This document shows positions 15,429 through 53,210 of a DNA stretch of 64,000 nt, piece after piece. The notes below the pieces were generated by a model, which did not search any database, had not been told where the DNA came from, and worked only from the letters and a program-made list of their open reading frames with translations. This stretch comes from Acholeplasmataceae bacterium (lineage in GTDB: Bacteria; Bacillota_I; Bacilli_A; Acholeplasmatales; Acholeplasmataceae): NCBI GenBank assembly GCA_963667565.1, contig OY763415.1, forward strand, positions 736,001-800,000, read 5' to 3'. Both the position numbers and the translations under genes were made by a program. Position 1 is the first letter of the stretch. Each line of letters starts with the position of its first letter.

Positions 15429-15463
15429 AAAAAGCTCAAACATCAAAGTTTGAGCCTTTTTTT
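15429..15463. terminator. Bidirectional terminator ending the fibre operon and the ABC operon
   Basis: gctcaaac..gtttgagc hairpin with A tract before and T tract after. Confidence 0.75.
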
Positions 15464-18400: not shown

Positions 18401-21400
18401 TAAAGACTTGATTTGTCGCATCTACAGCATCCGTAGCCCATGTCAAATCGTAGACAGGTGTATTTCTTGAAGAAGAATCATAAGGTTGTGAATCATAGGT
18501 TGTAAGGTTATATCTACCCGTAGTAGCATATGGACCAATTTCAACCATTTGATCTCCAACTTTTTTATGTGTACCAACCCATGTGTATCCATCAAGTGCA
18601 TTATCACCTGTTAAAAGATTAGCTACTCTTCTTGCTCCAGTAACATATGAGTCTTCAACTTCAATATACCTTGAAACTGTCAATTGTTGATATGACTGTG
18701 ACCCAAGGACTGCAGCATTTGATGGTAGATAATAAGTTAGCATCTTGCGTTCTTGATCGATAACTGGATTTGAAAGTGTTAAACCAGATGCTAATACGTT
18801 ACCATTAACATCTGTTTGTACAATATCTAAATTATATATCGTCGTTGCAAAGCTGACTTTTATTTGGCGCATCTCACTATAGAGTTGATATGCAACAGTT
18901 GATTGTGTTGATGCATCACCAATCCATGAGGTATCTGCAACCGCACTGTCTAAATCGTATGGATCTAATCCTGATAAATCAAAATTGTCAGGAATAAAAA
19001 TACCATTATTAATACCTAAACTAGAAGATAATGCATAGATACCAGGGAAATCATATGTTGTATCTGCTTCAAGTTTATTTAAGATTGAATCGTTAACTTT
19101 AGATGCTGGAATATATTCAATATAATCTTTGATGTATTGATCAGTACCTGCATTTGCAGGTCTAGGTGATCTAAAAGGAAAGAGTTCATAAAACATCCCA
19201 TCATCTGTTTCTGAGACATCATAATATTTAATGACTTGTCCAATATATGATCCTACCCACCCAGAACCTGTATAAAAATAGGTAAATGGCTCTACTGAGT
19301 CATCGCTAGGATTTGTGGTTGCCATGTATTGCACCATGTTAACGAGTACAGTATTTGCATCATCAATACTTCCATTAAATATGGATTGCCAATTTGATGA
19401 TAGGGGTGGTGCACTAGCAAACATATTAATTTTTGCATCAAAATTCAAGAGATATCCAAAGTATATAGAATCAATTGGGTATTGTGTATTACCTGCAAAA
19501 GCCCAAGTACTCGTCCCTGTGTGAATTTTACCTACAACTGCACCGAATGCATATGGCAAAGTTTGCGGTGGAGTTGTAGACATGCTATATGTATACGCAT
19601 GTGTTAATGGATCATAACTTGTGACTTGTCTAATTTTTCCATAGTTAATAAGATTTGAGACATAAACTTCATCTGGATTGATTTTGTCAAATTTAGAATA
19701 ATACATGAATCCAAAAATACCTGCTGCCAAATAACGACTGTAAATATTACCATAGTTAATATTATTTACAACAGATAATATACCTAAACCTAAGATGCCT
19801 GCTGCTTTACTTCTTGTTTCATTTGTGATCGAATAACTTGATTCAGAAGTAAGATTATATGCATATACATCACCGTAGTTAATACTAAACATAATTTTAG
19901 AAAACTGATGATTTGATCCAGTTGATATATCATTACCATTTTCTAATTTATCATTTCTTACTGCAATACCTGCTGCATGTGCATATCCAAGTGTCGAATT
20001 GGATGCAACCTTAATATCACCATTGTTTGCAGCATCTCTTATTTGTGCATATTCAGAAATAAGGGCATAAACAATACCCGCTGCTTCCATTTGGTCATTT
20101 GCTGTTTGTGCATCATTGTAAACTTCAATATTACCTAAGTTAATAGCATTTGTTAAAATACTTTCATTATAAAGTATGATACCAGCAACTTTAACATGAC
20201 CATCAAAATTACCATTCACTAAAATGTTACCAGAATTTAGCATGGTATCAACCGTACCATCAACAGAATTAATATCTATTGATAATGGATCAATTTCTAA
20301 ATCGGTATAGATATCTTGATTTCTATTTGCATATCCCATACCACTTACATATAAGTCATATGCGATATGGTTACCGGCATCTTTTTCGATTGAGATATCT
20401 CCACCTTGATATCCATTTGTGACATAAAATCCTTCTGATGCTTCTAAGAATAAACCGTTAATGTAGAATTTCGCATTTGAAAGTGTACTTGATGTATTAT
20501 GATTCATATAAATTGAAATATCGTTTTCTTGTCTAAGATGGTTCAAACTCAAATGTGTACCATAGACATTAAAAGATAGATAAATGTTTTGGTTTACGAG
20601 TGTTTGTGATGTATAAAAATCAAGATCCCCTGATTGATAGCTTTGCTCAATTGTTAAATTCGTTTGACTAAGTGCTAAGACGTTAGCAGCAAAATAATCA
20701 ATAAAACTTAAATCAAGATTTTGATATGATAAATTAAAAACACCTTTAATTGTTCCGTTTGCTTGATATGTAATTAATCCAAAAGACAAATAAACATCGA
20801 TTTGATTAAGAATAGTTTCTGATAGTGTTGCTTGTGGTGTGAGCGTAATTTCTCCATGATTTGAAATACTTAAGAAATCAATATCATTTTCTTGATCTGT
20901 AACATATCCATATCCAGCAACATAAACATTTGATGGACCAAACATCTTCACATCAATATCACCATTTTGATAAATATAGGAAATACTTTGTGCTAAATCG
21001 TTTTGATATGCTATGATACCACCAACATAAATTTGATCAACTAAGCCAGAGACTTGTGTTAAGATATTTCCAGTATTGATGACTTTATCCATTGACTCTA
21101 TGTTTGCAAATCCAACAACACCTCCATAGTAGGTTGTATTTGTTGGTGTGTTTTGATATGAAAGTCCATGGATATCGATATCACTAATGACATGATCTAA
21201 TGTTAAATGTGTAGCATAGGAAATGATACCAGCAACATAATTTGTTGTCATTCTCTCATTATCATTAACATAAATATTTTCAATATCACCTGTAGCTGTT
21301 GATTGATAAATGCTTGATGAACCATAAGAAATAAGTCCTGATACAAAAAGATTACCCAAACTTTCTTGATCTGCTGTTAAGATCACATCAACATCAACAT

Positions 21401-22928
21401 GAACATCATAAATATAACTTTCATTTGATGCACCTGCAATACTAGATACAAAAATACGATCAACATTTTGTATAAGATTGATATCTGCTGTTATAATGGT
21501 CATTTGAATAAAATTAATTGATGATATTTGACCAAAAAGCGCTGAAAATAATGCGTAAGATGCATAATCACACACGAAACTTGCTTGACTGATGGTTAAA
21601 TTGATTATGCTGTAATGATCTTCACTTCCACCTAATCCTTGATGGTTATATAATGTATTCCCACTGATGACATTACTTGTAAAAATACCATCAAAACTTA
21701 CTTCTGCAGCAACAAATGCATCTCTTGAGACTTGTCTCATATCGATGTCTGCATTTAAAATATATGTTGATGATCTAAAAAATCCAGATAATGTCAACAG
21801 ATGATTCATATAAATAAGATCTGTTGCATCAGTAATATATAAACTTTGATTAATGACTTCTAATCCTTGTAAGATTGGATATGTTTTATCAATGGTTAAT
21901 TGTGCTGCCTGATAAGGGTCATTACTTAAATCAACATATGAATCTTGGAAATACCAAGTTGTTGTAAAAATTGATGGGTTTTGGAAATCTTGTGTATGAA
22001 GTGGCGTAGCATATAGACTGCTTGAATCAGTATCGAGTAATATATCTTGATCATAATAAAGATGATCCACATTCCCTGTATTTTGATACATCATTAAAGC
22101 TGAAGTCAAATTTTGAGTGACTGATTGCGATTTTATATATGGCGATGCTATATAACTATTTGATACAGTACCTTGATTGACAGATACCAATCCAGAAATG
22201 ATAAAATCACCCTCAGCATTAATGCCTGCAGATGCTTCTCTTGTATCAATATAGTAAACATTTTCAAGTAATCCTTCATTTAGACCAACAAATGTTGATA
22301 CATGGGTCATAAGACCTAAGTCTAATGCTTGGACAATGAGAGGATTTATAAGTCCAAAGTTTTTAATAACAGCCGTTGGTGATGTCATTGAAAACATTGA
22401 ATAATAGATAAGACCTGACATATATTGATTATATGCATTTTCTGTATTGACACTTCTAAAAATAAGATTGGTAATTTCATAACCTTGCCCATCAAATGTT
22501 CCCGTGAAAGGTTGTTGAAAACCGATAGGAATAAAAAGATTATTCATAGAAATTTTTAGAGCATCAAAATAATCAATATCATTACCTAAAACATAATCAA
22601 GTGATAAATAGTCTGATTGATATGAACCTTTCGCATCAACAGATAGTTGATATAAATCAAGTGCAGTTTCAATGACATAGATTTTATTTGTATCAATAGC
22701 ACCAGGATTATTACTAATGGTTTCATAAGGTTCATAGACACTAACATAGTTAACATTTTCTAAAGGAGAAACACCTATGTCTTGACCTACCCATGCACTT
22801 GACTCTTGATAATTAATCGCTGTTGCTTGACTAAAATCAAAAAAACTGCTTGCATAAAATACTGCAGTTGCTAGAAACAATAATAAGATTGACTTTTTAA
22901 ATATTGTTGCTATTTTTGATTTTTTCAT
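15462..22928 (-). CDS. Giant secreted adhesin-like protein (GLUG/beta-helix-like repeats; three C-terminal CBM5/12-like repeats)
   Basis: N-terminal signal; YVLGNDID..PIG..FTGTFDGQGYEITNL; many N.G.I..(G/A)GI repeats; C-terminal Y..GD.(V/F).Y....(W/Y) x3; no C-terminal anchor. Confidence 0.75.
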   Translation of the reverse strand: MKKSKIATIFKKSILLLFLATAVFYASSFFDFSQATAINYQESSAWVGQDIGVSPLENVNYVSVYEPYETISNNPGAIDTNKIYVIETALDLYQLSVDAKGSYQSDYLSLDYVLGNDIDYFDALKISMNNLFIPIGFQQPFTGTFDGQGYEITNLIFRSVNTENAYNQYMSGLIYYSMFSMTSPTAVIKNFGLINPLIVQALDLGLMTHVSTFVGLNEGLLENVYYIDTREASAGINAEGDFIISGLVSVNQGTVSNSYIASPYIKSQSVTQNLTSALMMYQNTGNVDHLYYDQDILLDTDSSSLYATPLHTQDFQNPSIFTTTWYFQDSYVDLSNDPYQAAQLTIDKTYPILQGLEVINQSLYITDATDLIYMNHLLTLSGFFRSSTYILNADIDMRQVSRDAFVAAEVSFDGIFTSNVISGNTLYNHQGLGGSEDHYSIINLTISQASFVCDYASYALFSALFGQISSINFIQMTIITADINLIQNVDRIFVSSIAGASNESYIYDVHVDVDVILTADQESLGNLFVSGLISYGSSSIYQSTATGDIENIYVNDNERMTTNYVAGIISYATHLTLDHVISDIDIHGLSYQNTPTNTTYYGGVVGFANIESMDKVINTGNILTQVSGLVDQIYVGGIIAYQNDLAQSISYIYQNGDIDVKMFGPSNVYVAGYGYVTDQENDIDFLSISNHGEITLTPQATLSETILNQIDVYLSFGLITYQANGTIKGVFNLSYQNLDLSFIDYFAANVLALSQTNLTIEQSYQSGDLDFYTSQTLVNQNIYLSFNVYGTHLSLNHLRQENDISIYMNHNTSSTLSNAKFYINGLFLEASEGFYVTNGYQGGDISIEKDAGNHIAYDLYVSGMGYANRNQDIYTDLEIDPLSIDINSVDGTVDTMLNSGNILVNGNFDGHVKVAGIILYNESILTNAINLGNIEVYNDAQTANDQMEAAGIVYALISEYAQIRDAANNGDIKVASNSTLGYAHAAGIAVRNDKLENGNDISTGSNHQFSKIMFSINYGDVYAYNLTSESSYSITNETRSKAAGILGLGILSVVNNINYGNIYSRYLAAGIFGFMYYSKFDKINPDEVYVSNLINYGKIRQVTSYDPLTHAYTYSMSTTPPQTLPYAFGAVVGKIHTGTSTWAFAGNTQYPIDSIYFGYLLNFDAKINMFASAPPLSSNWQSIFNGSIDDANTVLVNMVQYMATTNPSDDSVEPFTYFYTGSGWVGSYIGQVIKYYDVSETDDGMFYELFPFRSPRPANAGTDQYIKDYIEYIPASKVNDSILNKLEADTTYDFPGIYALSSSLGINNGIFIPDNFDLSGLDPYDLDSAVADTSWIGDASTQSTVAYQLYSEMRQIKVSFATTIYNLDIVQTDVNGNVLASGLTLSNPVIDQERKMLTYYLPSNAAVLGSQSYQQLTVSRYIEVEDSYVTGARRVANLLTGDNALDGYTWVGTHKKVGDQMVEIGPYATTGRYNLTTYDSQPYDSSSRNTPVYDLTWATDAVDATNQVFTHEPHVKTTFLWWTFWDATGYRVNRTTANYGYGAYEAFSLSGYPTLYQYVGPSTEPVTYVLSANQSGVFVYPESGVYFKADTQDGSYTISDTASLQYNGTDDTSLITIPRSYGVYDSMYDSQGTYVDSVEDHYGSVRVYSQEYNQADTSTYQDYEIRIIRTANEDITDINSLLVNGVASLPQYYNVNNLTALNDLSYDTTGQNGIIRISYETYNVSNQFQLLPYIEVFDNNTGVKVYTSLYKLSQGEVITLNDFNNDTGQWGYGEATVVFEANEDFASGDYYIELTLLSGEIFRIHFSKQESANADVLQMTYQDEVIDISSNSYTSYIDYGMYYLSEQAATHVVNFTNLSSISHVYYDEVANELPSYLDGLVISNFAEISYVTFAVSLVDGYRHQYTIAYHLTAENGSTNVFNHYIIESALSQNPSAVYKNGGSLSLPVTNVNVLYQESPTIRVEYDFLNTYFATEDILTIDSSFTPLVAGEDALEGIDYFTNPISDIGYEIDLNQSTAKGSYFYQLSYDQVASVNGQTLTWHYTFNELQVTKLRNDNSHLKNVLFASDSVFDEVLDAFVTIIDIDEVTPTEYLAYFDEENPTSRIISVLPTSGIDYGTYESYQSYWIIGQVQETDLTAYMPTFYIPDGSSIYRVTDEANIDYTYQSTNLSADFTDFGTGESLNYIHYRIYAEDYNDYPTHYTDYYIAVQDATNNIKFDITVENDTQDLIEQVFVKVNIYQYASDFQGEMQYDDILVSMGLFSYYNQSSDSYDNNQFETSMYGFYVVYVDLPEGYSFEVEFEQSYIQDLVYLESSRIPRRYYVTIHIIEETPNSPSWGYQALFYYEAPAEPLDINHTYTDGDRFTYDGTTWIVISSSYTYDSNNPPGTGAWQGLQDASGIYSSVSTYEIGDIVYYIDRYYVALASYASYNNPISGLGDSWNEVSENWLSYNLYTTGDIVLYNGTYYISTASWNKGYQPDITTWAWQIYS

Positions 22929-22935
22929 TGAGCAC

Positions 22936-23622
22936 CTACACGGTAAAGAAACTGTTTTCTATACCCCATTTTTCATAAACTCTATTTGCCTGAACAATGT
23001 CAAATATCATATCAAAATATAAATAACATTCTTCATATAGTACTGCATTAGATCTTACTGGATATTGATTGCCACCATCAATGACATGAATCGTGACATC
23101 ATTAATACTTTGATTAACGATATCTGGATAATATACATAACCCTCTTGATCAAATAGTGGATTGCCAAAACTTGAATCAAACTTTAAATCTGAAAAAGGA
23201 TAGTATGGTAATTCTGTTTGATGATGATAAAGCGATTGAATGACTGGTGGAATTGGATTTTCTTCATTTTGATTGACATAATATGTTCCAAGTTCCCATT
23301 CCTGCTCAATTTTAAATCTGAATCTTGATGCAACAATGGGTTTTATTTTGAAATAAATATCTAAATTTTCAATAAAGTTTGTTGCTTGATCATCATAAGC
23401 ATTTACGATGACAACACCCTTATCCTGATCATAATATGGACTGTTATATGTCACAATTTGTCCATTAAAATAGACTAGCATTTCAACCTCAAAATCACCA
23501 GTAGATATGATGATGCCATGATCTTCAGAGACTTGAAAATATGCATAAGTTGTTACCATTAAAACAACAAACATCGAAATAAAGATAATGATAGATTTAA
23601 TCAAAAGTGATTTATGTTTCAT
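22936..23622 (-). CDS. SipW-dependent-type signal peptide protein (TasA/CalY-like minor subunit)
   Basis: Hydrophobic leader ending TTYA-YF. Confidence 0.72.
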   Translation of the reverse strand: MKHKSLLIKSIIIFISMFVVLMVTTYAYFQVSEDHGIIISTGDFEVEMLVYFNGQIVTYNSPYYDQDKGVVIVNAYDDQATNFIENLDIYFKIKPIVASRFRFKIEQEWELGTYYVNQNEENPIPPVIQSLYHHQTELPYYPFSDLKFDSSFGNPLFDQEGYVYYPDIVNQSINDVTIHVIDGGNQYPVRSNAVLYEECYLYFDMIFDIVQANRVYEKWGIENSFFTV

Positions 23623-24272
23623 CAGTTAAAATCTCCTTTGTCATTAATCATTAATATATTTAATTGCATGTTAAATACGACATCTAAATAAGCACTAGGA
23701 TCATCAAGTCCATCATAATCACCCCAAGCAACTATTTGAAAAGTCAGTTGATCTGCTTGAGATAAAGTATAACTGCTTATTTGATCTAAAACAGCTTGAT
23801 TTTGTACTGATATTGCATTTAATTGATCTTCTTTTGTCGGCATACCAGAAATGACTTGGTTAATATATGTTTCATAATCTGATGTTATAGGTGTACTTCC
23901 TATATTTAATCCTTCAAGAATGATGATATAAATAAGTCCATTTTCTGAGGGTTCATCAAGTGTGATTTGAAGTTTAGTCATTGGTGATTGATCATCTAAT
24001 ACAATATCAAAACGATGAGATGATGCCATGATGTTTAACATATGATTTTGTTGATTGATAAAATCATTTTGATAATCAACAAATGCTAAATCATCAAATG
24101 TAATTTGAGATGTTGCTGTTTGCTCATCTTTATATAGAGAAATAGACAAAACACCTGCATCAAACTGAGCAAGTGATTTTTGTTCTACGTATGTGAACCA
24201 TGCGTAAGTGACTGATACAATTGAAGTGACTAATAATAAGATGGATAATATCGTAATGGCATATCTTCTCAT
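23622..24272 (-). CDS. SipW-dependent-type signal peptide protein
   Basis: Leader ending VTYA-WFT; start MRRY at 24272 after GGAGGG. Confidence 0.75.
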   Translation of the reverse strand: MRRYAITILSILLLVTSIVSVTYAWFTYVEQKSLAQFDAGVLSISLYKDEQTATSQITFDDLAFVDYQNDFINQQNHMLNIMASSHRFDIVLDDQSPMTKLQITLDEPSENGLIYIIILEGLNIGSTPITSDYETYINQVISGMPTKEDQLNAISVQNQAVLDQISSYTLSQADQLTFQIVAWGDYDGLDDPSAYLDVVFNMQLNILMINDKGDFN

Positions 24273-24285
24273 ATTTCCCTCCAAT

Positions 24286-24392
24286 TAAAACAAAATAGCC
24301 GTTGATCTATATAATAGATGCAACTGGCTATCCGATTAAGGACCCTATAGCTTTGCGTCCCTAGATTACTCTAGGTTTGCCAAATGAGTAAG
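24286..24392 (-). ncRNA. Cyclic di-GMP-I (GEMM) riboswitch with overlapping terminator (operon-internal)
   Basis: Minus strand GGCAAACCTAGA-GTAA-TCTAGGGACGCAAAGCTATAGGGTCC..GGATAGCCAGTTGC, then ATAGCC..GGCTAT-TTTGTTTT. Confidence 0.92.
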
Positions 24393-24396
24393 TATG

Positions 24397-25044
24397 TTAT
24401 TGTTTTAATTTCTCTTCTTCGATGATTTGTTTTCTCATCTCTAATTTTAAATCTTCTAATTCTTTTTCATGTGCTTTTAATATATCTGTCTGTTTTTCTT
24501 TTTGATATGTTTTCATTAAATCAATAATTTCTGAAACCAATAGAATTGTTATAACGATAACGAGAGCAAAAAATATATAACTTCTATTAGATTGAACCAA
24601 TAGTGATATTGGTTTTAGAAATGTGATTTTTTCAACATATTGACCAACTAAATTATCTGATGTGATATATGCTTGAATTCCACTTTGGTCAGTTTGTGAT
24701 TCATTATCACCTTGAGTAATAAATCCTAAATCATTTTGATCTACAATTCTATGGACGATTAATATATCTAATCCATCTGCAGTTTTACCCTGATAAACGA
24801 TGACATCACCAATCGTTACATCTTGAATGTTAGCTTTATGCATGATATACATATCATTAACATTTAGTGAGTCTTCTTCTTCACCAATCATAGAATCAGT
24901 AGGTACTACACCTAATGCATATCCAAAGATAAACACAGGTTGATTATTCTTTATTGAGAGTGTTGCAGATATCATAATGCCAATCACTAAGATGACAGTG
25001 ATGAAACCTAAGATACTTGCAACCATTTTAATTATTTTTTTCAT
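24397..25044 (-). CDS. sipW: Signal peptidase I, SipW (ER/archaeal-type) family
   Basis: TM; catalytic Ser in TDSM; GDVIVY; catalytic His in IVHRI; TQGDN; C-terminal TM + coiled coil. Confidence 0.88.
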   Translation of the reverse strand: MKKIIKMVASILGFITVILVIGIMISATLSIKNNQPVFIFGYALGVVPTDSMIGEEEDSLNVNDMYIMHKANIQDVTIGDVIVYQGKTADGLDILIVHRIVDQNDLGFITQGDNESQTDQSGIQAYITSDNLVGQYVEKITFLKPISLLVQSNRSYIFFALVIVITILLVSEIIDLMKTYQKEKQTDILKAHEKELEDLKLEMRKQIIEEEKLKQ

Positions 25045-25052
25045 ATATGCTC

Positions 25053-25799
25053 CTAAGCAGATAATACCATGTTCACTGTTTGAATTTTTAGAGATTGACC
25101 CATAAAAATATTTGAATTTGTGTAAGGATCACCAAATGGATCAACACCATAAACAAATGGATCAAAATAGATGTCAAAGTATATCACTGTTGATGAAAAG
25201 TCATCAATATTGAGTGGAGCATCATTAATCAATTCATAATATGCATGAACTTCACCATCAAAAAAATCATTTTTATAATCAAGTGCATACGTATCTTTTA
25301 TGTCAGATGTCTCAACACCAGATATATTCATAAATGATACTTGAGTAACTTCATAACTAAACGCATTTTGTATCTTATTAACACTTGTTGCATAACCAAA
25401 AGAATTCACATTTGAAAATGAAAGTGACACATATCCTTGAGTAGTTCCTGTGTTATGAATCTTAATCGCAAAACTAAAACGTTCACCAGGTGCCACATAC
25501 CCATCAATTAAAGTCGTCTCAGTTGGATTTGGTATATATAAATATTTATCATACTCTAAAGCATCTGTCGTTGTATTATCAACCAGTGTTAGTGAAGTGC
25601 TTCCTTCATGCGTAGGATCATTATAAACATAAAACTCATATGCTGCTTCAATACCTGAAATTTGTGATATGAGATTTCCTTTATTGAGGTTTGTTACTGA
25701 AAACCATGCATAAGTTACTGTTGTAAGTAATAAAACAATAATGAGGACATAAATAGTTGTGAGCATGAATAACTTGTTTCTTCGATTTACTTTTTCCAT
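25053..25799 (-). CDS. SipW-dependent-type signal peptide protein
   Basis: Leader ending VTYA-WFS; APGE..F.I.I.N.G TasA/CalY-like motif. Confidence 0.78.
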   Translation of the reverse strand: MEKVNRRNKLFMLTTIYVLIIVLLLTTVTYAWFSVTNLNKGNLISQISGIEAAYEFYVYNDPTHEGSTSLTLVDNTTTDALEYDKYLYIPNPTETTLIDGYVAPGERFSFAIKIHNTGTTQGYVSLSFSNVNSFGYATSVNKIQNAFSYEVTQVSFMNISGVETSDIKDTYALDYKNDFFDGEVHAYYELINDAPLNIDDFSSTVIYFDIYFDPFVYGVDPFGDPYTNSNIFMGQSLKIQTVNMVLSA

Positions 25800-25817: not shown

Positions 25818-27668
25818 TTATCCTTTTTGACTTAATTTTTTTTCATGACTTTCCTTTAACTTTTGTTGTTGTTTTATAATGCGCTGATCAGATTGTTTTT
25901 TAATTTTTGCTTCTTGATTTTCAAGTCTTTGTTTTTCAAGTTTCAATTGTGTTTTAACTTTTTGATTAAGTCGTATTTGATCTCTTTTTTGTTTTGCTTT
26001 AATCTTTTTGATTTCTTGATCATAAAGCATTTTAGCCTTTTTCTTTTCAGCAGCAATAATCTTAATCTCTTCTGCTTTAACTTTTTTACGTGTCGCTGCT
26101 ATTTTCTCAGTGACTTTTTTATGTTCTTCACTCATGAGTTTCTTTTGAGCTGATACATAATCAAGATATGTTTTTAATGCTTCCTGATTTTCAGTCAAAT
26201 GTTGTCTTTCAATCTTAATTTTTTCTTCTACCTTAGCAAGTTCTGCCTCTTCTCTAATACGTTTTTTAGATTCTTTAGCAAAAGCTTTATCTAAATTTTC
26301 AATCTCTTTCATTAATCTTCGTTCAAGTCTAATTGATTGGTTATAATCAACTTCTTTAGTTTCTCTAATGATTCTTGCGATATGAAGTTTATCTTTTGTT
26401 TTAAGAATTTGATCTTCAGTCGTTTCTTTTATAAGTGATTTAAATAAATAATCATCATTTAGAACATGATCATTTAAATCAAAATAAGATTCATAGAGTG
26501 CATTTGTAATATTGATGGTATCTCTTAACGCTTTTTTTAATCCAACTTCATACGAAGAAGACTCATCTACATAAGCTTCGATTGAATCTTTAAATGTTTT
26601 CTTATTTTGTTCTAAGTAGTATTGATTAATCTTTGTATCTTCAAGTTCAATTTGCTGTGCATTATCAACTATTGTATCTAAATGCTTTTTAACAATTTTA
26701 GGACTTTTTTTATGATACTCACGTTCATCTAAATATTGATAATGATCTTCAAGTGCTTTTTGATTACCATAAATGGTAGTAAAAGTTTGAAGTGCGAGTT
26801 GATAAATATTTTTCATATAATAACTATCAAATGAAAGATTTTTTTCGTTGACTTCAGTATCAAAATCTAGTGTATTGTACTTATCTAAAAATAACCATAA
26901 TGTGTAGCAATTCTTATAATCAATGTTTTTTGTAATAATAGATGTTTGCATAATTGGAGGATAAACAGGTTTAGCATTTTTAAGTTCATCCATAAATTGT
27001 GTTTGTTTTAAGCTATTGATCTGTTTCAATAAATATTCTATGCGTTTTAGCAATGCATGATTTTCTTTATTAATACTTTCATCTTCTACATCTTCTTCAA
27101 TCACGACATTGAGATTAAGTTTAACTCTAGAATCTTGAATTTGGAATGCTGACTTTAAGTCAAAATGTTTTTTATCAAATGATTCAACATTTTTTTTAAC
27201 AATTTGGTATCTACGATCAATAAAGTCATATAATCGATCAACTAAAGTTTTAAAAAATCTATTCTCATAAATCGCATATTCAATTTCTGCATTTGTAACT
27301 AATATTCTTTTAGGGACAACATTTTGATTACGATATTCTTTAATTAAATGTGTGTTTGCTGCTAAATGTCTAACAGAATCACTATTCACACGCTTTGCTT
27401 TTTCAATCGCTGTAACTTCTTGTTCATAACGCAATCCTGATTTAGGTGAATTTGCTATTTTAAATAAACTCGGGAAAAATGATTCAATCGTCTGAATCCA
27501 TTCCTCATGAAATTTCTTAATTTCTGTAATGCTCTTTTGATAAATTTCATTATCTCCATCAAGAAGTGCAGAATAAAAATAGTTTGGAAAATCCTGATTT
27601 AACTCAATGTCATAATATGCATCATTGATGGCTTTATGAAATTTTCTTAAATCAGTTAATTTTTTCAT
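25818..27668 (-). CDS. DUF2357 (McrC-like N-terminal) protein with long K/E coiled-coil C-terminus, no visible nuclease
   Basis: Y.IYENRF.K.L and N.DY..CY.LW motifs; directly after McrB-like gene. Confidence 0.75.
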   Translation of the reverse strand: MKKLTDLRKFHKAINDAYYDIELNQDFPNYFYSALLDGDNEIYQKSITEIKKFHEEWIQTIESFFPSLFKIANSPKSGLRYEQEVTAIEKAKRVNSDSVRHLAANTHLIKEYRNQNVVPKRILVTNAEIEYAIYENRFFKTLVDRLYDFIDRRYQIVKKNVESFDKKHFDLKSAFQIQDSRVKLNLNVVIEEDVEDESINKENHALLKRIEYLLKQINSLKQTQFMDELKNAKPVYPPIMQTSIITKNIDYKNCYTLWLFLDKYNTLDFDTEVNEKNLSFDSYYMKNIYQLALQTFTTIYGNQKALEDHYQYLDEREYHKKSPKIVKKHLDTIVDNAQQIELEDTKINQYYLEQNKKTFKDSIEAYVDESSSYEVGLKKALRDTINITNALYESYFDLNDHVLNDDYLFKSLIKETTEDQILKTKDKLHIARIIRETKEVDYNQSIRLERRLMKEIENLDKAFAKESKKRIREEAELAKVEEKIKIERQHLTENQEALKTYLDYVSAQKKLMSEEHKKVTEKIAATRKKVKAEEIKIIAAEKKKAKMLYDQEIKKIKAKQKRDQIRLNQKVKTQLKLEKQRLENQEAKIKKQSDQRIIKQQQKLKESHEKKLSQKG

Positions 27669-27677
27669 ACAAAACCT

Positions 27678-29222
27678 CTAAAATTGTTTTTTAATTGTTG
27701 TTAAATAGCTTTGGCATTCTACAAATCCATTTTTACCAAATAAGCGATCTAGTAAAACTGATAATTCATTAATTTCATTTTGTAAAAAAGGTAGATTTAA
27801 ACTTTCGAATTTTCTTAATATTTTTCTTGCTACCATATAATCCAACGCTTCAGTTTCACTACCACCACAAGCAACGTAAACAGGAACAAATGCTCTGATT
27901 TGTTTCATGATACGATTACCGAATGTGACTTTAAAATTTTCAGTTATGAACTTATCTAATTTTTCTAAGTTTTGAAGTGATTTTAATGTAAGAGGATGTT
28001 CTTTTAAAGCTAATCTAAATAATTCATTTAAATAATCATTTGAAATATTAACAGGTTCTGTTAAAGGTGCATCAATAAACTCTGATTTTGTATTAATTTC
28101 AATAGGTGTTGCACGGTCATAAACTTTATCTGTAATGGTAAATGTTGAATCATCTTTATTAGCTGTTCCAATAAACCATACATTTTGAGGTAATAAAATC
28201 TTACCTTTTTGAATATGAATTGGATCATTTTCTTGCGTATCAGGAACAACATCAATAAACCATTGTTCTGGATCTGGCATTTCAAGTAACGATAGAAACT
28301 CTGCAAAGTAGTATTCAACTCTCGCTAAGTTCATTTCATCTAAAACGATGAAATTAGGATCACTACGATATGTCGTCTCATAAATCGATTCTAAAAATTC
28401 AGTTTCATTGAATTTTTTAGTAAACTCATTTAAGTATCCCATCATTTCAGCGCGATCACGCCATGAAGGTTGAACGGCAATAATATGAGAATCATGTCCA
28501 AAAAACTTACCCATTGCATAAGGTAGAGAAGTTTTCCCTGTCCCTGAAATCCCTTCAAGAATCATTGTCTTTGAAGATGCCATACCTGCAAAAAATGCAG
28601 AGATAATTTTACGATTATAGAATAGACCAAGTTGAGATGCTGAAAAGTTAATAAAACGTGTAACGATTTCATTTAAATTAAGCATATCCTCTTCGCGCAT
28701 AAATATTTGAGTCACTTGATTTTCATACTCTCTATCTACACGTTTAAGCTTAACAAATCTAGAAGGTTCTTCAATTGCTTGCTTAGCTTTATCTTCTTCT
28801 CTATCTTCATCCTCATAGGATTCACCAGATGGGTTGATACCTAAGTTTGACACTTTAAGTGCCAATATTTTATTTCGTTCATCGACAAGTTCAACAGTCT
28901 TTTGATTAAGAAATGCGATTTCTTCTAATAATTCATCTTTTTCAATTTCTCTTCCAATAAATCGTACATATTTGCTAATCCATTGATAAAGTTTTAATAC
29001 TAAAAAAGTGATTAAAGCTAGGTTGACGATCAATATGACAAATCCAATGATCCAATCTATCACAGTAAATTCTTCAGATGCAATTGAAAATCGTTGGAAA
29101 TATTGAATAAAATCAGCAACAAAGAAATTTGCAATCGCTTCGAAAATTTGTTTGAAAAATTCTCCGATATTAGCAAAAAATTGTCTGATAAATTCAATAT
29201 AGAATCTTGCAAATTCTACCAT
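27678..29222 (-). CDS. Membrane-anchored McrB-family AAA+ NTPase
   Basis: N-terminal amphipathic + TM + coiled coil; Walker A GISGTGKT; VQPSW.D; Walker B VLDEMNLAR.EYYF; GTANKDDST (McrB NxxD-type); KVYDRA. Confidence 0.88.
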   Translation of the reverse strand: MVEFARFYIEFIRQFFANIGEFFKQIFEAIANFFVADFIQYFQRFSIASEEFTVIDWIIGFVILIVNLALITFLVLKLYQWISKYVRFIGREIEKDELLEEIAFLNQKTVELVDERNKILALKVSNLGINPSGESYEDEDREEDKAKQAIEEPSRFVKLKRVDREYENQVTQIFMREEDMLNLNEIVTRFINFSASQLGLFYNRKIISAFFAGMASSKTMILEGISGTGKTSLPYAMGKFFGHDSHIIAVQPSWRDRAEMMGYLNEFTKKFNETEFLESIYETTYRSDPNFIVLDEMNLARVEYYFAEFLSLLEMPDPEQWFIDVVPDTQENDPIHIQKGKILLPQNVWFIGTANKDDSTFTITDKVYDRATPIEINTKSEFIDAPLTEPVNISNDYLNELFRLALKEHPLTLKSLQNLEKLDKFITENFKVTFGNRIMKQIRAFVPVYVACGGSETEALDYMVARKILRKFESLNLPFLQNEINELSVLLDRLFGKNGFVECQSYLTTIKKQF

Positions 29223-29244: not shown

Positions 29245-29958
29245 TTATGACTTGTTTTTTTCGTTTTCTAATTCTTTAAGTATTTCGGCACGCATTTTTT
29301 CTTTTTCTGCTTCTAAACTTAATTTTGCATTTTCTTTTTCTAAAGCAAATTTTTCTTCTAATTTGTCTTTGTTGATACCAATAAGATTACGTGCTAACAT
29401 GACACCTTCAAAAGCTAAGAGTAATACAACTGGCAAAATGATGAATACTGCAAATCCTGTTGGTGTTTGTAAATAATCTAATGCATTTCCAAAACCTACA
29501 AGTTTATCGCCATGATAAATCGCAAGTACATCTTCAATATTAACTGGTTGATCAGGAGATGTGTTATTGTTGTTAGATATGTAATTATAATCAGCTTGTG
29601 TAATCAGATAACCTTCTGCTGCATTGATTTCTACAATTCTATGGGTATTAAACTCATGAATCGTTGTATCAAAATATGTAACAACATCACCTACTTGTAA
29701 CAAAGCTCTACTTTGATCATTAAGCATCGTCACAAATAATAAGTCACCTTTTTGAAAAGAATCTTCTAAATCACCATACATCGAATTAGATTGTACAGCG
29801 AGCATACCTTGATTAAATATATTTGCAATATTATCTTCTCTTTTGACCTTCATGTTGGCAAATGAGAAAACTAATAAGAAAACAATGACAACGTAGAAAA
29901 TAACATTTAAAACGATGCTCATTGCTTTTTTTAATTTTGATTGTTCTTTAGTCTTCAT
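29245..29958 (-). CDS. sipW: Signal peptidase I, SipW family (second copy)
   Basis: TM; VQSNSM; KGDL; GDVVTY; THRIV; C-terminal TM + coiled coil. Confidence 0.85.
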   Translation of the reverse strand: MKTKEQSKLKKAMSIVLNVIFYVVIVFLLVFSFANMKVKREDNIANIFNQGMLAVQSNSMYGDLEDSFQKGDLLFVTMLNDQSRALLQVGDVVTYFDTTIHEFNTHRIVEINAAEGYLITQADYNYISNNNNTSPDQPVNIEDVLAIYHGDKLVGFGNALDYLQTPTGFAVFIILPVVLLLAFEGVMLARNLIGINKDKLEEKFALEKENAKLSLEAEKEKMRAEILKELENEKNKS

Positions 29959-32737: not shown

Positions 32738-32842
32738 AAAAAATAAAAACCAGCTATCATCGAATAAAATGATAACTGGCTACCTTTAACTAGGCCCTAT
32801 AGCTTTGCGTCCTATGATTCCTCATAGTTTGCCTTTGACATA
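32738..32842 (-). ncRNA. Cyclic di-GMP-I-class riboswitch + terminator, tandem unit 3 (gene-proximal)
   Basis: GGCAAACTATGA-GGAA-TCATAGGACGCAAAGCTATAGGGCCT..AGGTAGCCAGTTATC; terminator CCAGTTATCAT..ATGATAGCTGG-TTTTT. Confidence 0.93.
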
Positions 32843-32858
32843 CACTGATTAAATTATG

Positions 32859-32961
32859 AAAAATAAAAAGCCAGCATCATCATATAAATGATAACTGGCT
32901 ACCTTTAACTAGGCCCTATAGCTTTGCGTCCTATGGTTCCCCATAGTTTGCCTTTAACATA
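32859..32961 (-). ncRNA. Cyclic di-GMP-I-class riboswitch + terminator, tandem unit 2
   Basis: Same aptamer with compensatory P2 change (CTATGG/CCATAG); terminator AGCCAG..CTGGCT-TTTT. Confidence 0.93.
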
Positions 32962-32987
32962 TGTATATATTTAGTTGATGAAGGTAC

Positions 32988-33089
32988 AAAAAAAGCCAGC
33001 ATCATCATAATTAATGACAACTGGCTACCTTTAACTAGGCCCTATAGCTTTGCGTCCTATGGTTCCCCATAGTTTGCCTTTTTACATTT
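32988..33089 (-). ncRNA. Cyclic di-GMP-I-class riboswitch + terminator, tandem unit 1 (promoter-proximal)
   Basis: Same aptamer; terminator AGCCAG..CTGGC-TTTTTTT. Confidence 0.93.
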
Positions 33090-33097
33090 GTATCTAT

Positions 33098-33126
33098 ATT
33101 TTATGACAAGTTTATCTAATTGTCAA
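33098..33126 (-). promoter_or_regulatory. Sigma70-type promoter of fibre operon, overlapped by an inverted repeat
   Basis: TTGACA(33126-33121)-17nt-TAAAAT(33103-33098); TGACAA-N10-TTGTCA at 33104-33125. Confidence 0.8.
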
Positions 33127-33151: not shown

Positions 33152-34582
33152 TTAGGATAAAACATTGTGCCATGCTTCAGTTCCTAAGTAACCACGTAGT
33201 GATTCTGCAGAAATAGGTTTAGAAAAATAATAACCTTGTTGGATATCTATACCATAATGTATTGCTTTATCCATCATTTCTTTATTTTCTATCATTTCAC
33301 AAATGATTAAAGTATCATGTTGTTCAGCAAAATCAACAAGTAATTTAGCAAATTTAGATTTCATATAATCTTCATCTTCTTTTAAAAACTCATTGTCTAA
33401 TTTGATAATGTCAACTTGAAGATCTGTAACTTTTGATAATGTTTGATAATCTAGTCCAAAACCATCAATGGCAATTTCGAAACCCATTTGCTTAAGTGTC
33501 TTAAGATTCTTAAGTATAGTTTCTTGTTTTTCAAAGATTGCAAATTCAATAATTTCTAGAATAATATTGTTTGCTTGTGCTCTATATTTCTTAAGTACTT
33601 TTTGCATATCCATAGCAATAGAATCACTCATAAGTTGTTTAGGCCCAATATTCATTGAGAATTTGATTTTATCATTTGGAAAATATTGAGCAATTTCTTG
33701 TTGCGTTTTAATAATGGTTTCTAATCCCCATAATGTAATCCAATGAATATCACCTGATTGTTCCATAATACCTAAAAACTTAAATGGAGATAAAAGACCA
33801 TGTTCTGGATGATTCCATCTAATAAGTGATTCGACACCATAGATTTGTTTTGTAACTACATTAATCATTGGATGATAGAACAATTGAAATTCTTTATGCG
33901 TAATCGCATGTTTAATTTGATAGTAATACTCAACGTGCTCTCCACCTTGTTCACTCATTTCTTCTGAGTAAATACGGATATTATTTCCACCATTTCTCTT
34001 AATAATATATGTTGCAAGTAACAATGAATTAATTAAATCCTTAATACTATGCCCGTGTGCGGGATAGAACGCGACAGCAATAGATGCAGTTGATTTAATA
34101 TCTGTATCACCAAATAATCTAATCGGTTTTTGAATCGCTTGTTTAATCTTATGTGCAAATGTAACAACTTCACTGCGATCATAATCATGATTGAAGAAAA
34201 TTAAGAATTCATCATTTTGATATCTCGCAATCTTAACACCTCTAGGTAATGCTCGTTCCATATTTTTAGCAATTTTATGAATAATACTTTCACTTTCTTC
34301 TTTACCGAATGCATTTATGAAGTCAGTAAATTTATCTAAATCGATATAAACTACGCTAAATTGGATATCTTTTCCTGTTTTAGTTAAGTATGAAGTAATT
34401 AAGTTGTTCATCTCATTTTTAGAAAGTACACCTTCAATAGAGAGTGCCTTCTCATCTTTAATTTTTTTTCTTTCTTTAAAAAATGAAAATGCTAAGAAAT
34501 ATACAACAACAATAATTAAAGCGATTAAAAGAAACGTTAAAATGATTGCTGATGCATCATTTAAGTATATTGGAAACATCAT
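33152..34582 (-). CDS. TM-GGDEF-EAL protein, both domains degenerate (candidate c-di-GMP receptor)
   Basis: GGDEF site reads YQNDEF; EAL site reads ESLIRW; loop 6 reads IDGFGLDY instead of DDFGTGY. Confidence 0.85.
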   Translation of the reverse strand: MMFPIYLNDASAIILTFLLIALIIVVVYFLAFSFFKERKKIKDEKALSIEGVLSKNEMNNLITSYLTKTGKDIQFSVVYIDLDKFTDFINAFGKEESESIIHKIAKNMERALPRGVKIARYQNDEFLIFFNHDYDRSEVVTFAHKIKQAIQKPIRLFGDTDIKSTASIAVAFYPAHGHSIKDLINSLLLATYIIKRNGGNNIRIYSEEMSEQGGEHVEYYYQIKHAITHKEFQLFYHPMINVVTKQIYGVESLIRWNHPEHGLLSPFKFLGIMEQSGDIHWITLWGLETIIKTQQEIAQYFPNDKIKFSMNIGPKQLMSDSIAMDMQKVLKKYRAQANNIILEIIEFAIFEKQETILKNLKTLKQMGFEIAIDGFGLDYQTLSKVTDLQVDIIKLDNEFLKEDEDYMKSKFAKLLVDFAEQHDTLIICEMIENKEMMDKAIHYGIDIQQGYYFSKPISAESLRGYLGTEAWHNVLS

Positions 34583-37158
34583 TTTCTTCTAACCTCCTTT
34601 TTATTTTTTATCAAACTGACTGATTTTGTTTTTTCTAAGTTATAAGCTTTGATGAGTTGTATTGCTTGTTCTTTTGGTACCGGTGCTGAAATCATATACC
34701 CTTGAATGATGTCACATCCACCTTTATAAATAAGCTGATTTTGCTTTTGTGTTTCCACACCTTCAGCAATGACATCTAATCCGATATCTTTTGCTAAATT
34801 TGAGATCATATGAACTATGGCTCTTGAATGGGCATCTTCTTCAACACCATCAATAAATGTTTTATCAATTTTGATTGCATTGATTGGTAAATCTTTTAAA
34901 TATTGAAGTGATGAATATCCTGTACCAAAGTCATCAAGGTGTATATTAAATCCATACTTTCTTAAAATGTTTAGTTTTGCAATGACTAATTCAAATGAAT
35001 CAATTAAGAATGTTTCAGTAATTTCTAAACTAATAGCGCCTTTTTTAAGTTCATATTGTTCAAAAACACTAATAATTTCATTAACAAATCCCGCTTGGAG
35101 CATTTGTACGGGTGAAATATTTAAAGAAATTTCTACATTATAGTGCTCTAATTCCTTAGCTGCTAAAAACGTTTCATGAAGTGCGATTCTACCAATGTCG
35201 ATAATCATTGAATTTTGTTCTGCCATACGAATAAACTTAAGTGGTGACTCACTTGCATATCTTGGATTATTCCAACGAATCAGTGCCTCAAATCCAACAA
35301 TACGTTCTTCTTCATTGTTATATTGGGGCTGAAAAACCATTTTAAACTCTTGGTTTGTAATGGCTTTTGCTAAATCCATTTCCATTCTATTACTTCTTGA
35401 TGCCACAATACTTAATGAAACATCATATATAAAATAGTTTTTAGTTGTATTACTTTTAGCATGCTCTAATGCAAGGGTCATGTTTTCAATACATACTTGA
35501 GGATTCAGTATTTCATATTTTTCATTTTCCTTTAAGAAAATACCAAATTTCAAGTGAATATTAAGCAAGTTTCTATCTATGGTTAATGGTTGACTAAAAA
35601 TCTCATTTAATTTTTGCATCCATAAATGTACCCATTGGTAATTTTCGATATTTTCTAATAACACTACAAATAAGTCACCTTCTAGGTTAAATAACATTGA
35701 TGGATAACCTTCTAATGTTTCAAGAGCATAATCAGAAACAAGTCTCAAGAAGTGATCTGTGCTTTTTTTTCCTAAAAGCAAACTGATTTTGCTAAAATTA
35801 TCTATTTCAAAAGCAATCAGTGCATTCTTTTTATGGATGCGTTCTTCATTTTTAAATAAATCATCTAAGACCTGCATAAGTGAATTCTTATTAGGTAATT
35901 GAGTGATATTATTCATAAGTGCGAGTGTTTTATACTCATCAAACTTACCTTCTGATTGAGAAACATCATCTCCAACCAAAATAAATCCACCTTGTGCTCT
36001 TGTTGGAATAAACCTTATGTATTTTAGCTCTTCATCTTTTTGAAATAATGCTGTAAATGGTTTTTGACGATCAATATTTTCAGATAATGATGTAGAGATT
36101 TCTTCTTCTTTAATTCTAAAGTCACTGATATTGTCATAAATATCTTGATCACCTAAAAATTGTGAAAATGATCGATTGTATGATTTAATGTAACCATCTT
36201 TCTTAATTTTGACAATGAAAGGTTTCGTATAAAACAATTTAAGTCTTGCATCATGAATATCTTCAATTCGTTTTGAAAGAATTTTGTATATGAAAAGGGT
36301 TGCGATAGAATAGATGATGAATATGATAAAAAACATTGCCCATAGAACGCCAGTCAAATATGAAAGTGATAAACGTACAGATGTAGATGCATAACTAAAT
36401 GTGAAATACATACCACTCTCTGTAGTTTGTTGAATATGGATAGGTGCATAAGTCAAATAGTCATCACCTGTGAACGCTCTAGTTTCTAAAATACCTGATT
36501 GAAGTGAGTAAATCGCAGAAGTGAAATCGTTGATATATGATTGTTGATAACCCGCTTCTCTAAAGTAGTCATTAAAATATGGATATGTTTCATTTGATTG
36601 ACTTGAATAAAAAATTCTATTGTCAGTTGAAATGATAAAGTAGTTATCGATGAGTTCATTAGATTCAAAAAATCTTGACACAAAAATGTTAGCATCAAAA
36701 AAGCCAATATATTCGTTAACTTTAAACACAAAATATGTACCTCCAAAATCGGAAGTATTAAATGCATCATTGAAATCATAAATCGCAAATTGTTGATTAA
36801 AATCGACATTAAAAACTTGTGGTTGATATGTATAAGTTTCACCATTAATTGTGACATCTCTTCCATCAATAGTCCCAAGACCTAAAAGTGATTGATCAAG
36901 AACATCAAAATCAGAAGGATTAATATCTAAAATTGGGTCTGCTGTTTCAGTGATGATATCTGCAAATCTTTGATAGTCATAATTGACTTGCAAACTGAAA
37001 AGAGACGCAACATCTTCAGTTGATACGACAAGTTCTTTTTCTGCTTGTTTTAAGATGTAGTTATTTGAAATTTCGACATATGCAAAAAATATAACAGCCA
37101 TTAATAGCATGTAAGCTAATATGAGTGTGAGTGCATACTGCCATGTGTGTTTTCTCAT
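34579..37158 (-). CDS. Membrane sensor GGDEF(degenerate)-EAL phosphodiesterase
   Basis: Two TMs around an extracellular domain; LEGDLF; intact EALIRW, EITE, DDFGTGYSS, KIDK, EGVE, QGY. Confidence 0.9.
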   Translation of the reverse strand: MRKHTWQYALTLILAYMLLMAVIFFAYVEISNNYILKQAEKELVVSTEDVASLFSLQVNYDYQRFADIITETADPILDINPSDFDVLDQSLLGLGTIDGRDVTINGETYTYQPQVFNVDFNQQFAIYDFNDAFNTSDFGGTYFVFKVNEYIGFFDANIFVSRFFESNELIDNYFIISTDNRIFYSSQSNETYPYFNDYFREAGYQQSYINDFTSAIYSLQSGILETRAFTGDDYLTYAPIHIQQTTESGMYFTFSYASTSVRLSLSYLTGVLWAMFFIIFIIYSIATLFIYKILSKRIEDIHDARLKLFYTKPFIVKIKKDGYIKSYNRSFSQFLGDQDIYDNISDFRIKEEEISTSLSENIDRQKPFTALFQKDEELKYIRFIPTRAQGGFILVGDDVSQSEGKFDEYKTLALMNNITQLPNKNSLMQVLDDLFKNEERIHKKNALIAFEIDNFSKISLLLGKKSTDHFLRLVSDYALETLEGYPSMLFNLEGDLFVVLLENIENYQWVHLWMQKLNEIFSQPLTIDRNLLNIHLKFGIFLKENEKYEILNPQVCIENMTLALEHAKSNTTKNYFIYDVSLSIVASRSNRMEMDLAKAITNQEFKMVFQPQYNNEEERIVGFEALIRWNNPRYASESPLKFIRMAEQNSMIIDIGRIALHETFLAAKELEHYNVEISLNISPVQMLQAGFVNEIISVFEQYELKKGAISLEITETFLIDSFELVIAKLNILRKYGFNIHLDDFGTGYSSLQYLKDLPINAIKIDKTFIDGVEEDAHSRAIVHMISNLAKDIGLDVIAEGVETQKQNQLIYKGGCDIIQGYMISAPVPKEQAIQLIKAYNLEKTKSVSLIKNKKEVRRK

Positions 37159-44821: not shown

Positions 44822-44896
44822 TGGTGGAGTTACTGGGGATTGAACCCAGGACCCCTTGCACGTCAAGCAAGTGCTCTCCCGCTGAGCTATAACTCC
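44822..44896 (-). tRNA. tRNA-Val(GAC)
   Basis: Cloverleaf GGAGTTA..TAACTCC-ACCA; anticodon arm CTTGC-TTGACGT-GCAAG; TTCAATC T-loop. Confidence 0.96.
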
Positions 44897-53054: not shown

Positions 53055-53143
53055 AAAAAAAAATTCTACAACAAAAAAATTGTTGTAGAAGTCATTAGCT
53101 TTACGCGGTTCTAGCTTTCGCTAAGGGAGACGTTCATTCCCTA
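53055..53143 (-). ncRNA. Fluoride (crcB) riboswitch with overlapping terminator
   Basis: Minus strand GGGAATGAACGTCTCCC..AACCGCGTAAAGCTAATGACTTCT; terminator TTCTACAACA..TGTTGTAGAA-T8; TTGACA-16-TATAAT at 53177-53150. Confidence 0.85.
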
Positions 53144-53210
53144 TGTCTTATTATATGTAAATTCATCTAAATGTCAATCATATAACTAAATTATATAAAT
53201 CTTTATACAT

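Follow-up and report, generated by a model that had tools for sequence, protein, structure and literature searches.

The three tandem c-di-GMP-I aptamers that lead a SipW-type operon in an Acholeplasmataceae bacterium all carry U instead of C at position 92, together with G20. This G20/U92 pocket is no local oddity but goes far back and is spread across the order; it swaps with A20/C92 and never joins A20. The ligand is probably c-di-GMP, with U92 acting as a one-mismatch weakening that would give the leader a high and sharp threshold. Positions are those of the window, i.e. the whole stretch of 64,000 nt that was analysed.

Register and architecture of the leader aptamers

The aptamers were located by cmscan with the Rfam model RF01051 (gathering score 35); the three leader matches span model positions 1-87 and score 60.1-62.1 bits. 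Set against the consensus ...gGcUgCC, leader aptamers 1 to 3 read AGUUGUC or AGUUAUC without a gap, which puts U in column C92 and C in column C93; the internal aptamer of the operon reads AGUUGCA, with C in column C92. On the plus strand this corresponds to A at 33017, 32891 and 32772 and to G at 24320, and G20 is found in all four aptamers of the window. A preliminary description of this DNA had assigned G20/U92 to the tandem copies and canonical G20/C92 (24320) to the internal one, and both assignments hold in the Rfam alignments. A register shift, in which the next C would be position 92 and U92 an alignment artefact, was considered and rejected: besides the cmscan alignments, an alignment of ten sequences, orthologous C92 copies included, runs gap-free along the 3' strand of P3 up to position 93, and the G:C93 pair closing a P1 of at least 2 bp is kept in 45/47 U92 copies of relatives. 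Sequencing or assembly error was rejected as well, as no other base occurs at 33017, 32891 and 32772 in contigs from 4/4 public runs (one of which may be the source sample). The three leader copies are pairwise identical at 66-72 of 76 positions, so that their U92 counts as one inherited event, not three. In aptamer 1 the G of P1 sits 7 bases before G20, not 6, owing to an extra A in J1/2.

In other respects the pocket is that of the class (numbered after PMC6140456 and PMC3764141, which also give the roles of G20, C92 and G14-C93). The cmscan alignments place G20 and A47, the C44-G83 pair and the GNRA tetraloop in the leader aptamers, and GACGCAAA and the G83 context are both exact in 43 of the 47 U92 copies known from the order (see below). 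C92 is the only feature of the canonical c-di-GMP-I pocket that aptamers 1 to 3 lack, and the A20 with C92 of GEMM-Ib is found in none of them.

Table 1. Leader, operon and upstream genes in window coordinates
Feature	Positions	Strand	Details
Two GGDEF-EAL genes upstream of the leader	33152..37158	-	both GGDEF degenerate
Promoter-like site, sigma-70-type	33098..33126	-	TTGACA-17-TAAAAT, 10 nt before aptamer 1; 11/12 consensus matches
c-di-GMP-I aptamer 1	33013..33088	-	G20 33078, U92 33017, C93 33016; J1/2 +1 A; RF01051 61.6 bits
Terminator 1	32987..33026	-	U92 paired to A, U-tract after; -15.4 kcal/mol
c-di-GMP-I aptamer 2	32887..32962	-	G20 32952, U92 32891; RF01051 62.1 bits
Terminator 2	32859..32900	-	design as terminator 1; -15.9 kcal/mol
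c-di-GMP-I aptamer 3	32768..32843	-	G20 32833, U92 32772; RF01051 60.1 bits
Terminator 3	32738..32781	-	perfect 14-bp stem and U-tract; -19.5 kcal/mol
First regulated gene, ~235 aa	32017..32724	-	N-terminal hydrophobic segment; putatively TasA/CalY-like
Two genes, 320 aa and 305 aa	30062..32008	-	SipW-type signal-like N-termini, T-F-A-W motif (read by eye)
SipW-like signal peptidase I	29245..29958	-	TIGR02228 62.8 bits (cut-off 51.85)
514-aa P-loop ATPase-like gene and 616-aa DUF2357 gene	25818..29222	-	GxSGTGKT by eye; PF09823
248-aa secreted-type gene and second SipW-like peptidase	24397..25799	-	peptidase TIGR02228 54.5 bits
Internal c-di-GMP-I aptamer	24316..24391	-	canonical G20 24381/C92 24320, A93; P1 1 bp; RF01051 55.9 bits
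Distal genes after the internal switch	15462..24284	-	220 aa, 228 aa, 2488-aa surface-type protein

Features of the leader and of its neighbourhood are listed in Table 1. The promoter-like site is a consensus match only, of which shuffled sequences are expected to give 2.4. On folding, each leader aptamer has its own terminator, which overlaps the 3' strand of the aptamer and in which U92 is paired to A; the 5' arm of terminator 1, for instance, consists of the 3' strand of P3, U92 and the 3' strand of P1 of aptamer 1. In a strict terminator scan terminator 3 is the only one of the three leader hairpins to pass. The internal aptamer also has a terminator of its own, where C92 is bulged. This layout suggests that the SipW/TasA-like operon lies behind three serial switches, which are probably ON switches in vivo.

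Both operon peptidases are above the TIGR02228 cut-off; against the SipW equivalog NF046067 the one at 29245..29958 gives E=3e-18, below the cut-off of that model. The first regulated gene has no Pfam or NCBIfam match, and its nearest named Atlas cluster is camelysin PF12389 (0.86), to be taken as a lead only. The 320-aa and 305-aa genes and the three distal genes are likewise without Pfam or NCBIfam match, and the structure predicted for the 305-aa product from its single sequence reached a pLDDT of 37 only. The SipW-type peptidases and the weak Atlas lead suggest a TasA-like fibre operon. Two other features of the operon were noted: the ATPase-like/DUF2357 pair in its middle (25818-29222, minus strand) recalls McrBC-like modules, and the 2488-aa protein (15462-22928, minus strand) has an N-terminal signal-like segment and repeats.

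Upstream of the leader, the 859-aa GGDEF-EAL protein has an intact EAL/DDFGTG, and in the 476-aa one (33152-34582, minus strand) both domains are degenerate (ESL/DGFGLD in the second). The gene of the latter lies immediately upstream at 29 of the 33 orthologous leaders, and its product, which is 64-98% identical within the genus, is possibly a c-di-GMP receptor linked to the operon. Elsewhere in the window are found a 743-aa HTH-GAF-PAS-PAS-HD-GYP protein (42444-44675, plus strand), in which a DNA-binding domain is fused to a c-di-GMP phosphodiesterase domain of RxxK type, a fluoride riboswitch (53079-53150, minus strand; 38 bits for a cut-off of 34) and a tRNA (44825-44896, minus strand).

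Position 92 across the order

RF01051 was present in 41 of the 61 genomes searched. From these, 146 aptamers were fetched and one, off-register, was dropped (G015 C70); another, below the gathering score, was left out (G035 C72). The 145 aptamers scored are 75 G20/C92, 47 G20/U92 (from 26 genomes), 21 A20/C92, 2 C20/C92 and no A20/U92, i.e. U92 has a share of about 32% in the order (47/145). In all 47 U92 copies G20 is kept and C93 comes next after U92. A pattern search over 307 genomes of the order returned 194 G20/U92 in 101 genomes, 78 A20/C92 in 56, and no true A20/U92; two apparent A20/U92 matches (G261 and G268) turned out to be A20/C92 aptamers misread in a register further downstream. 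Outside the order, U92 was found in at most 2 of 127 aptamers (one plausible, one unreadable), taken from the first 120 rows of a bacterial genome scan, a sample that is pattern-biased and not random; in other orders of the same class the count was 1 of 44. Position 92 of the outside bacteria was called from pairing, by a caller that agreed with the Rfam ends in 15/15 cases. As for other pockets, C20/C92 occurs in two genomes (L108 and L120, in G047 and G057), and a G21-to-C change (GCCAAA) was seen in several relatives (among L277-L293).

The pockets were also counted by the gene that follows. At leaders before the ortholog of the window's first regulated gene (class 1, n=55), 38 are G20/U92, 11 G20/C92 and 6 A20/C92. 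The source genome has a fifth aptamer, outside the window (G000:C1:1151479-1151553; L003/L130), which is A20/C92, hence cGAMP-type by the usual rule, and stands before a second SipW-type operon; in four other genera its orthologs carry G20/U92. Leaders of the gene behind this fifth aptamer (class 2) are A20/C92 in 8 cases, G20/U92 in 5 and G20/C92 in 2, counting the 15 direct orthologs and leaving out five looser members of the cluster. The orthologs of the internal switch are 17 G20/C92 and 2 A20/C92, with U92 in 0/19. All in all, pockets with one mismatch make up 57 of the 75 aptamers at the two leader classes versus 11 of 70 elsewhere. At class 1 leaders, G20/C92 is the sole aptamer in five genomes (G022, G033, G041, G048 and G055) and is mixed with U92 in two (G001 and G007).

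According to protein trees (midpoint-rooted FastTree, without a clade test), G20/U92 was replaced by A20/C92 at least twice at orthologous leaders, on the branch leading to this genus (second operon) and within the G003/G006/G007 clade (first operon). The terminator arm covaries with position 92, whose hairpin partner is A in 46/47 U92 copies, while 69/98 C92 copies have G there. Five C92 copies of the G003/G006/G007 clade, four of them A20, keep the terminator A, which is a trace of an earlier U92. P1 averages 3.9 bp in the U92 copies (n=47) versus 2.0 bp in the G20/C92 copies (n=75), kin being counted as independent here as in the terminator-pairing statistics, so that the p-values of both overstate the significance.

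The ligand of the G20/U92 pocket

The source genome, which is 99.85% complete, encodes 13 GGDEF domains, nine with an intact motif and four degenerate. In all nine intact ones the residue that is Ser/Thr in Hypr enzymes is Asp (signature from PMC6456294), and Ser/Thr is found there in 0/13. Both HD-GYP domains of the genome are of the c-di-GMP-type RxxK, not the cGAMP-type Rxx(Q/N) (signatures from 10.1101/600031). The genome search for Hypr GGDEF or CD-NTase genes proposed in the preliminary description was thus run and came back empty, with neither SMODS nor DncV-like genes among the hits; three NTP_transf_2 matches considered as CD-NTases look, by eye, like small antitoxin-type nucleotidyltransferases. 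In an inventory that covers known synthase signatures only, the genome has the synthase and the phosphodiesterase expected of a c-di-GMP host, and lacks the Hypr GGDEF or CD-NTase expected of a GEMM-Ib host.

In the relatives, the presence of a GGDEF does not discriminate (58/61 genomes have one), and DncV-like genes occur in 4/61, with a distribution that does not follow that of U92. A pattern search of 225 genomes of the order, in a frame that fits all nine intact GGDEFs of the source genome, returned no Ser/Thr-type GGDEF; the 24 matches considered as Hypr candidates are 9 Cys-type GGDEFs and 15 proteins other than GGDEF. The former, with Cys at the Hypr position and an intact motif, belong to nine genomes of family f2 (L132, L133, L304-L308, L310 and L320), a family rich in A20/C92 aptamers (41/106 genomes), and are candidates for a promiscuous cyclase. 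Two oddities of the source genome were also seen. Behind its sole diadenylate cyclase comes a 525-aa membrane protein whose GGDEF domain is degenerate (G000:C1:1569062-1571575), and two GGDEF domains of identical protein sequence, one of them N-terminally truncated, lie near the two ends of the contig (G000:C1:19642-20112 and 1738182-1738652), by either duplication or assembly overlap.

Vc2 with C92U is reported to bind c-di-GMP at about 15 nM; U92 was reportedly named as a natural minority variant by Smith in 2010, and the C92U structures of 2012 are said to have contained pGpA/GpA. With its natural G20/C92 pocket, Vc2 has a pM affinity for c-di-GMP and binds cGAMP at 10 uM, and with G20A it binds c-di-GMP at 53 nM and cGAMP at 120 nM (PMC6140456). 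For the double mutant G20A/C92U the value quoted in PMC9049102 is 4900 nM for c-di-GMP, versus 0.011 nM. In vivo, C92U lowers the ligand-dependent RNA of Vc2 30-fold, and a diguanylate cyclase partly rescues it (10.1101/617340). In the literature searched, key Vc2 papers lying outside it, neither a binding test of a natural G20/U92 aptamer nor one of cGAMP with C92U turned up, and no study was found that deals with these riboswitches or with a c-di-GMP regulon of SipW-type surface operons in this lineage.

A detuned c-di-GMP switch probably accounts best for these data. In the absence of ligand, the 3' side of P3, U92 and the 3' side of P1 would refold into the intrinsic terminator; bound ligand would hold P1 and P3 and let RNA polymerase read on, and the SipW/TasA-like operon would be transcribed only when all three aptamers are occupied. 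U92 would change the G-C pair made with the beta guanine of c-di-GMP into a G-U wobble, which is weaker, but would leave G20, A47 and the tertiary contacts in place, the longer P1 offsetting part of the loss of affinity. Three weakened ON switches in series would set a high and steep c-di-GMP threshold, and the distal genes would be gated by the internal switch, which is canonical and has a weak P1. That a pocket has one mismatch (U92 or A20) or none, and never both, is expected if the ligand stays c-di-GMP and affinity is tuned, since a double mismatch would destroy binding. The same reading explains the enzyme inventory and the canonical pockets at the same leader: the presence of c-di-GMP machinery only, together with G20/C92 in 11 of 55 class 1 aptamers, supports c-di-GMP as the likely ligand. 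The partial rescue of Vc2 C92U by a diguanylate cyclase, the longer P1, the upstream GGDEF-EAL gene and the match with the Bc3-5 design (see below) also support it. Of the two alternatives put forward in the preliminary description, lowered affinity for c-di-GMP is therefore the better supported one; an adenine-containing ligand has found no enzymatic support, and the integration of two signals by the operon is unsupported.

Two observations weigh against plain tuning. The swap between G20/U92 and A20/C92 is also expected of two alternative cGAMP pockets, and tuning leaves unexplained the preference of this lineage for so costly a change (about 32% versus at most 2/127). G20/U92 might then be a mirror-image pocket for 3',3'-cGAMP or a mixed G/A dinucleotide, or else a bispecific pocket, in which the G of the ligand would pair with G20 and its A would form a Watson-Crick pair with U92; it would be exchangeable with A20/C92 and fed by an unrecognised synthase of the order. 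The mutual exclusion of A20 and U92, the repeated replacement at orthologous leaders, the fifth aptamer with its G20/U92 orthologs and the concentration of one-mismatch pockets at the two leader classes would all fit such a pocket, as would the crystallisation of C92U Vc2 in a study of linear dinucleotides (according to a table of PMC10671752) and the Cys-type GGDEFs of family f2. Yet the latter are absent from the source genome and unmatched in f1 genomes, where most U92 copies occur; the source genome, without Hypr, CD-NTase or cGAMP-type HD-GYP, offers no synthase candidate, and the DncV-like genes of relatives are found independently of U92. Moreover, relatives have the cognate G20/C92 pocket in place at this leader, and A20 pockets also bind c-di-GMP, as the figures for Vc2 G20A indicate. 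A cGAMP pocket is hence unlikely. Should it be right, the leader would represent a new natural subclass of cGAMP riboswitch and imply a synthase outside the Hypr and CD-NTase signatures, the operon would act as an AND gate that needs cGAMP at the leader and c-di-GMP at the internal switch, and surface-fibre operons would be under cGAMP control across a wall-less order.

Alternatively, U92 could be near-neutral, with the same threshold as C92, either because C93 slips to pair with the guanine of the ligand or because U92 is kept by terminator pairing and AT-biased mutation. A C93 does follow U92 in 47/47 copies, the GC content of the genome is 31%, and position 92 is paired in the terminator, with A or G as its partner according to the base, so that a reversion needs a second change. 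However, C93 is engaged by the G that closes P1 in 45/47 U92 copies, and it is typical of the C92 copies at the same leaders too, so that its link with U92 is explained by descent. Mutation bias fares no better with the internal aptamers, which lie in the same AT-rich genomes with U92 in 0/19, or with the other orders of the class (1/44), and a neutral U92 would give no reason for A20 to be excluded. We regard a near-neutral U92 as improbable. That the leader senses c-di-AMP, the sole adenine-containing cyclic dinucleotide with a known synthase here (the genome has one CdaA-type DAC, hence makes c-di-AMP, and has no dedicated c-di-AMP riboswitch), is very hard to believe, since Vc2 needs both G20A and C92U to bind it (PMC7288161, PMC9049102), all 47 U92 copies have G20 and A20/U92 is absent from the 307 genomes.

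If the ligand is c-di-GMP, as we favour, the leader would be a case of natural affinity tuning in a riboswitch pocket and would suggest that, in wall-less bacteria, SipW-type surface operons form part of a c-di-GMP regulon. About 190 natural sequences, along with matched U92, C92 and A20 orthologs, are available for testing how pocket mismatches set thresholds. A20 by itself would then not mean cGAMP, A20/C92 being frequent here with no known synthase to go with it.

Comparison with known systems

Judged from its sequence, the leader belongs to a well-known riboswitch class and follows a known tandem design; its pocket is a variant found across the lineage, with a putative ligand preference. 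It shares with Vc2 (RF01051, GEMM-I) the fold, the motifs, G20, A47, G14-C93 and the GNRA tetraloop. The pocket letters are those of the engineered Vc2 C92U (PDB 3MUR), whereas U92 of the leader is natural, order-wide and coupled to a terminator, and the P3 loop is shorter. Natural pocket variants exist in the same clan, namely c-di-GMP-I-GGC (RF03167) and c-di-GMP-I-UAU, the names of which presumably denote positions 20/47/92; the copies of the window differ in having RF01051 as their best-scoring model and in retaining G20 and A47.

In the GEMM-Ib cGAMP riboswitch (A20/C92; Geobacter Gs1761, with the Hypr GGDEF GacA), one ligand-reading base is changed towards adenine recognition, as here, and A20/C92 copies are found at the same leaders in relatives and at the second operon of the genome. 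In the leader, however, the change is at 92 and not at 20, in a genome without Hypr GGDEF and cGAMP-type HD-GYP.

Tandem c-di-GMP-I aptamers have been catalogued as 347 doublets and 12 triplets (PMC9481103). The closest design is Bc3-5 of Bacillus thuringiensis, a tested triple-tandem c-di-GMP-I ON switch placed before cell-surface genes (PMC4759541). As in Bc3-5, each predicted terminator of the leader claims the base of the binding site together with the strand of P1 and some of P3. The binding-site base of Bc4 is C (C245), whereas the leader has U; and the genes behind the leader are SipW/TasA-like, belong to a wall-less lineage and include, inside the operon, a fourth, canonical switch.
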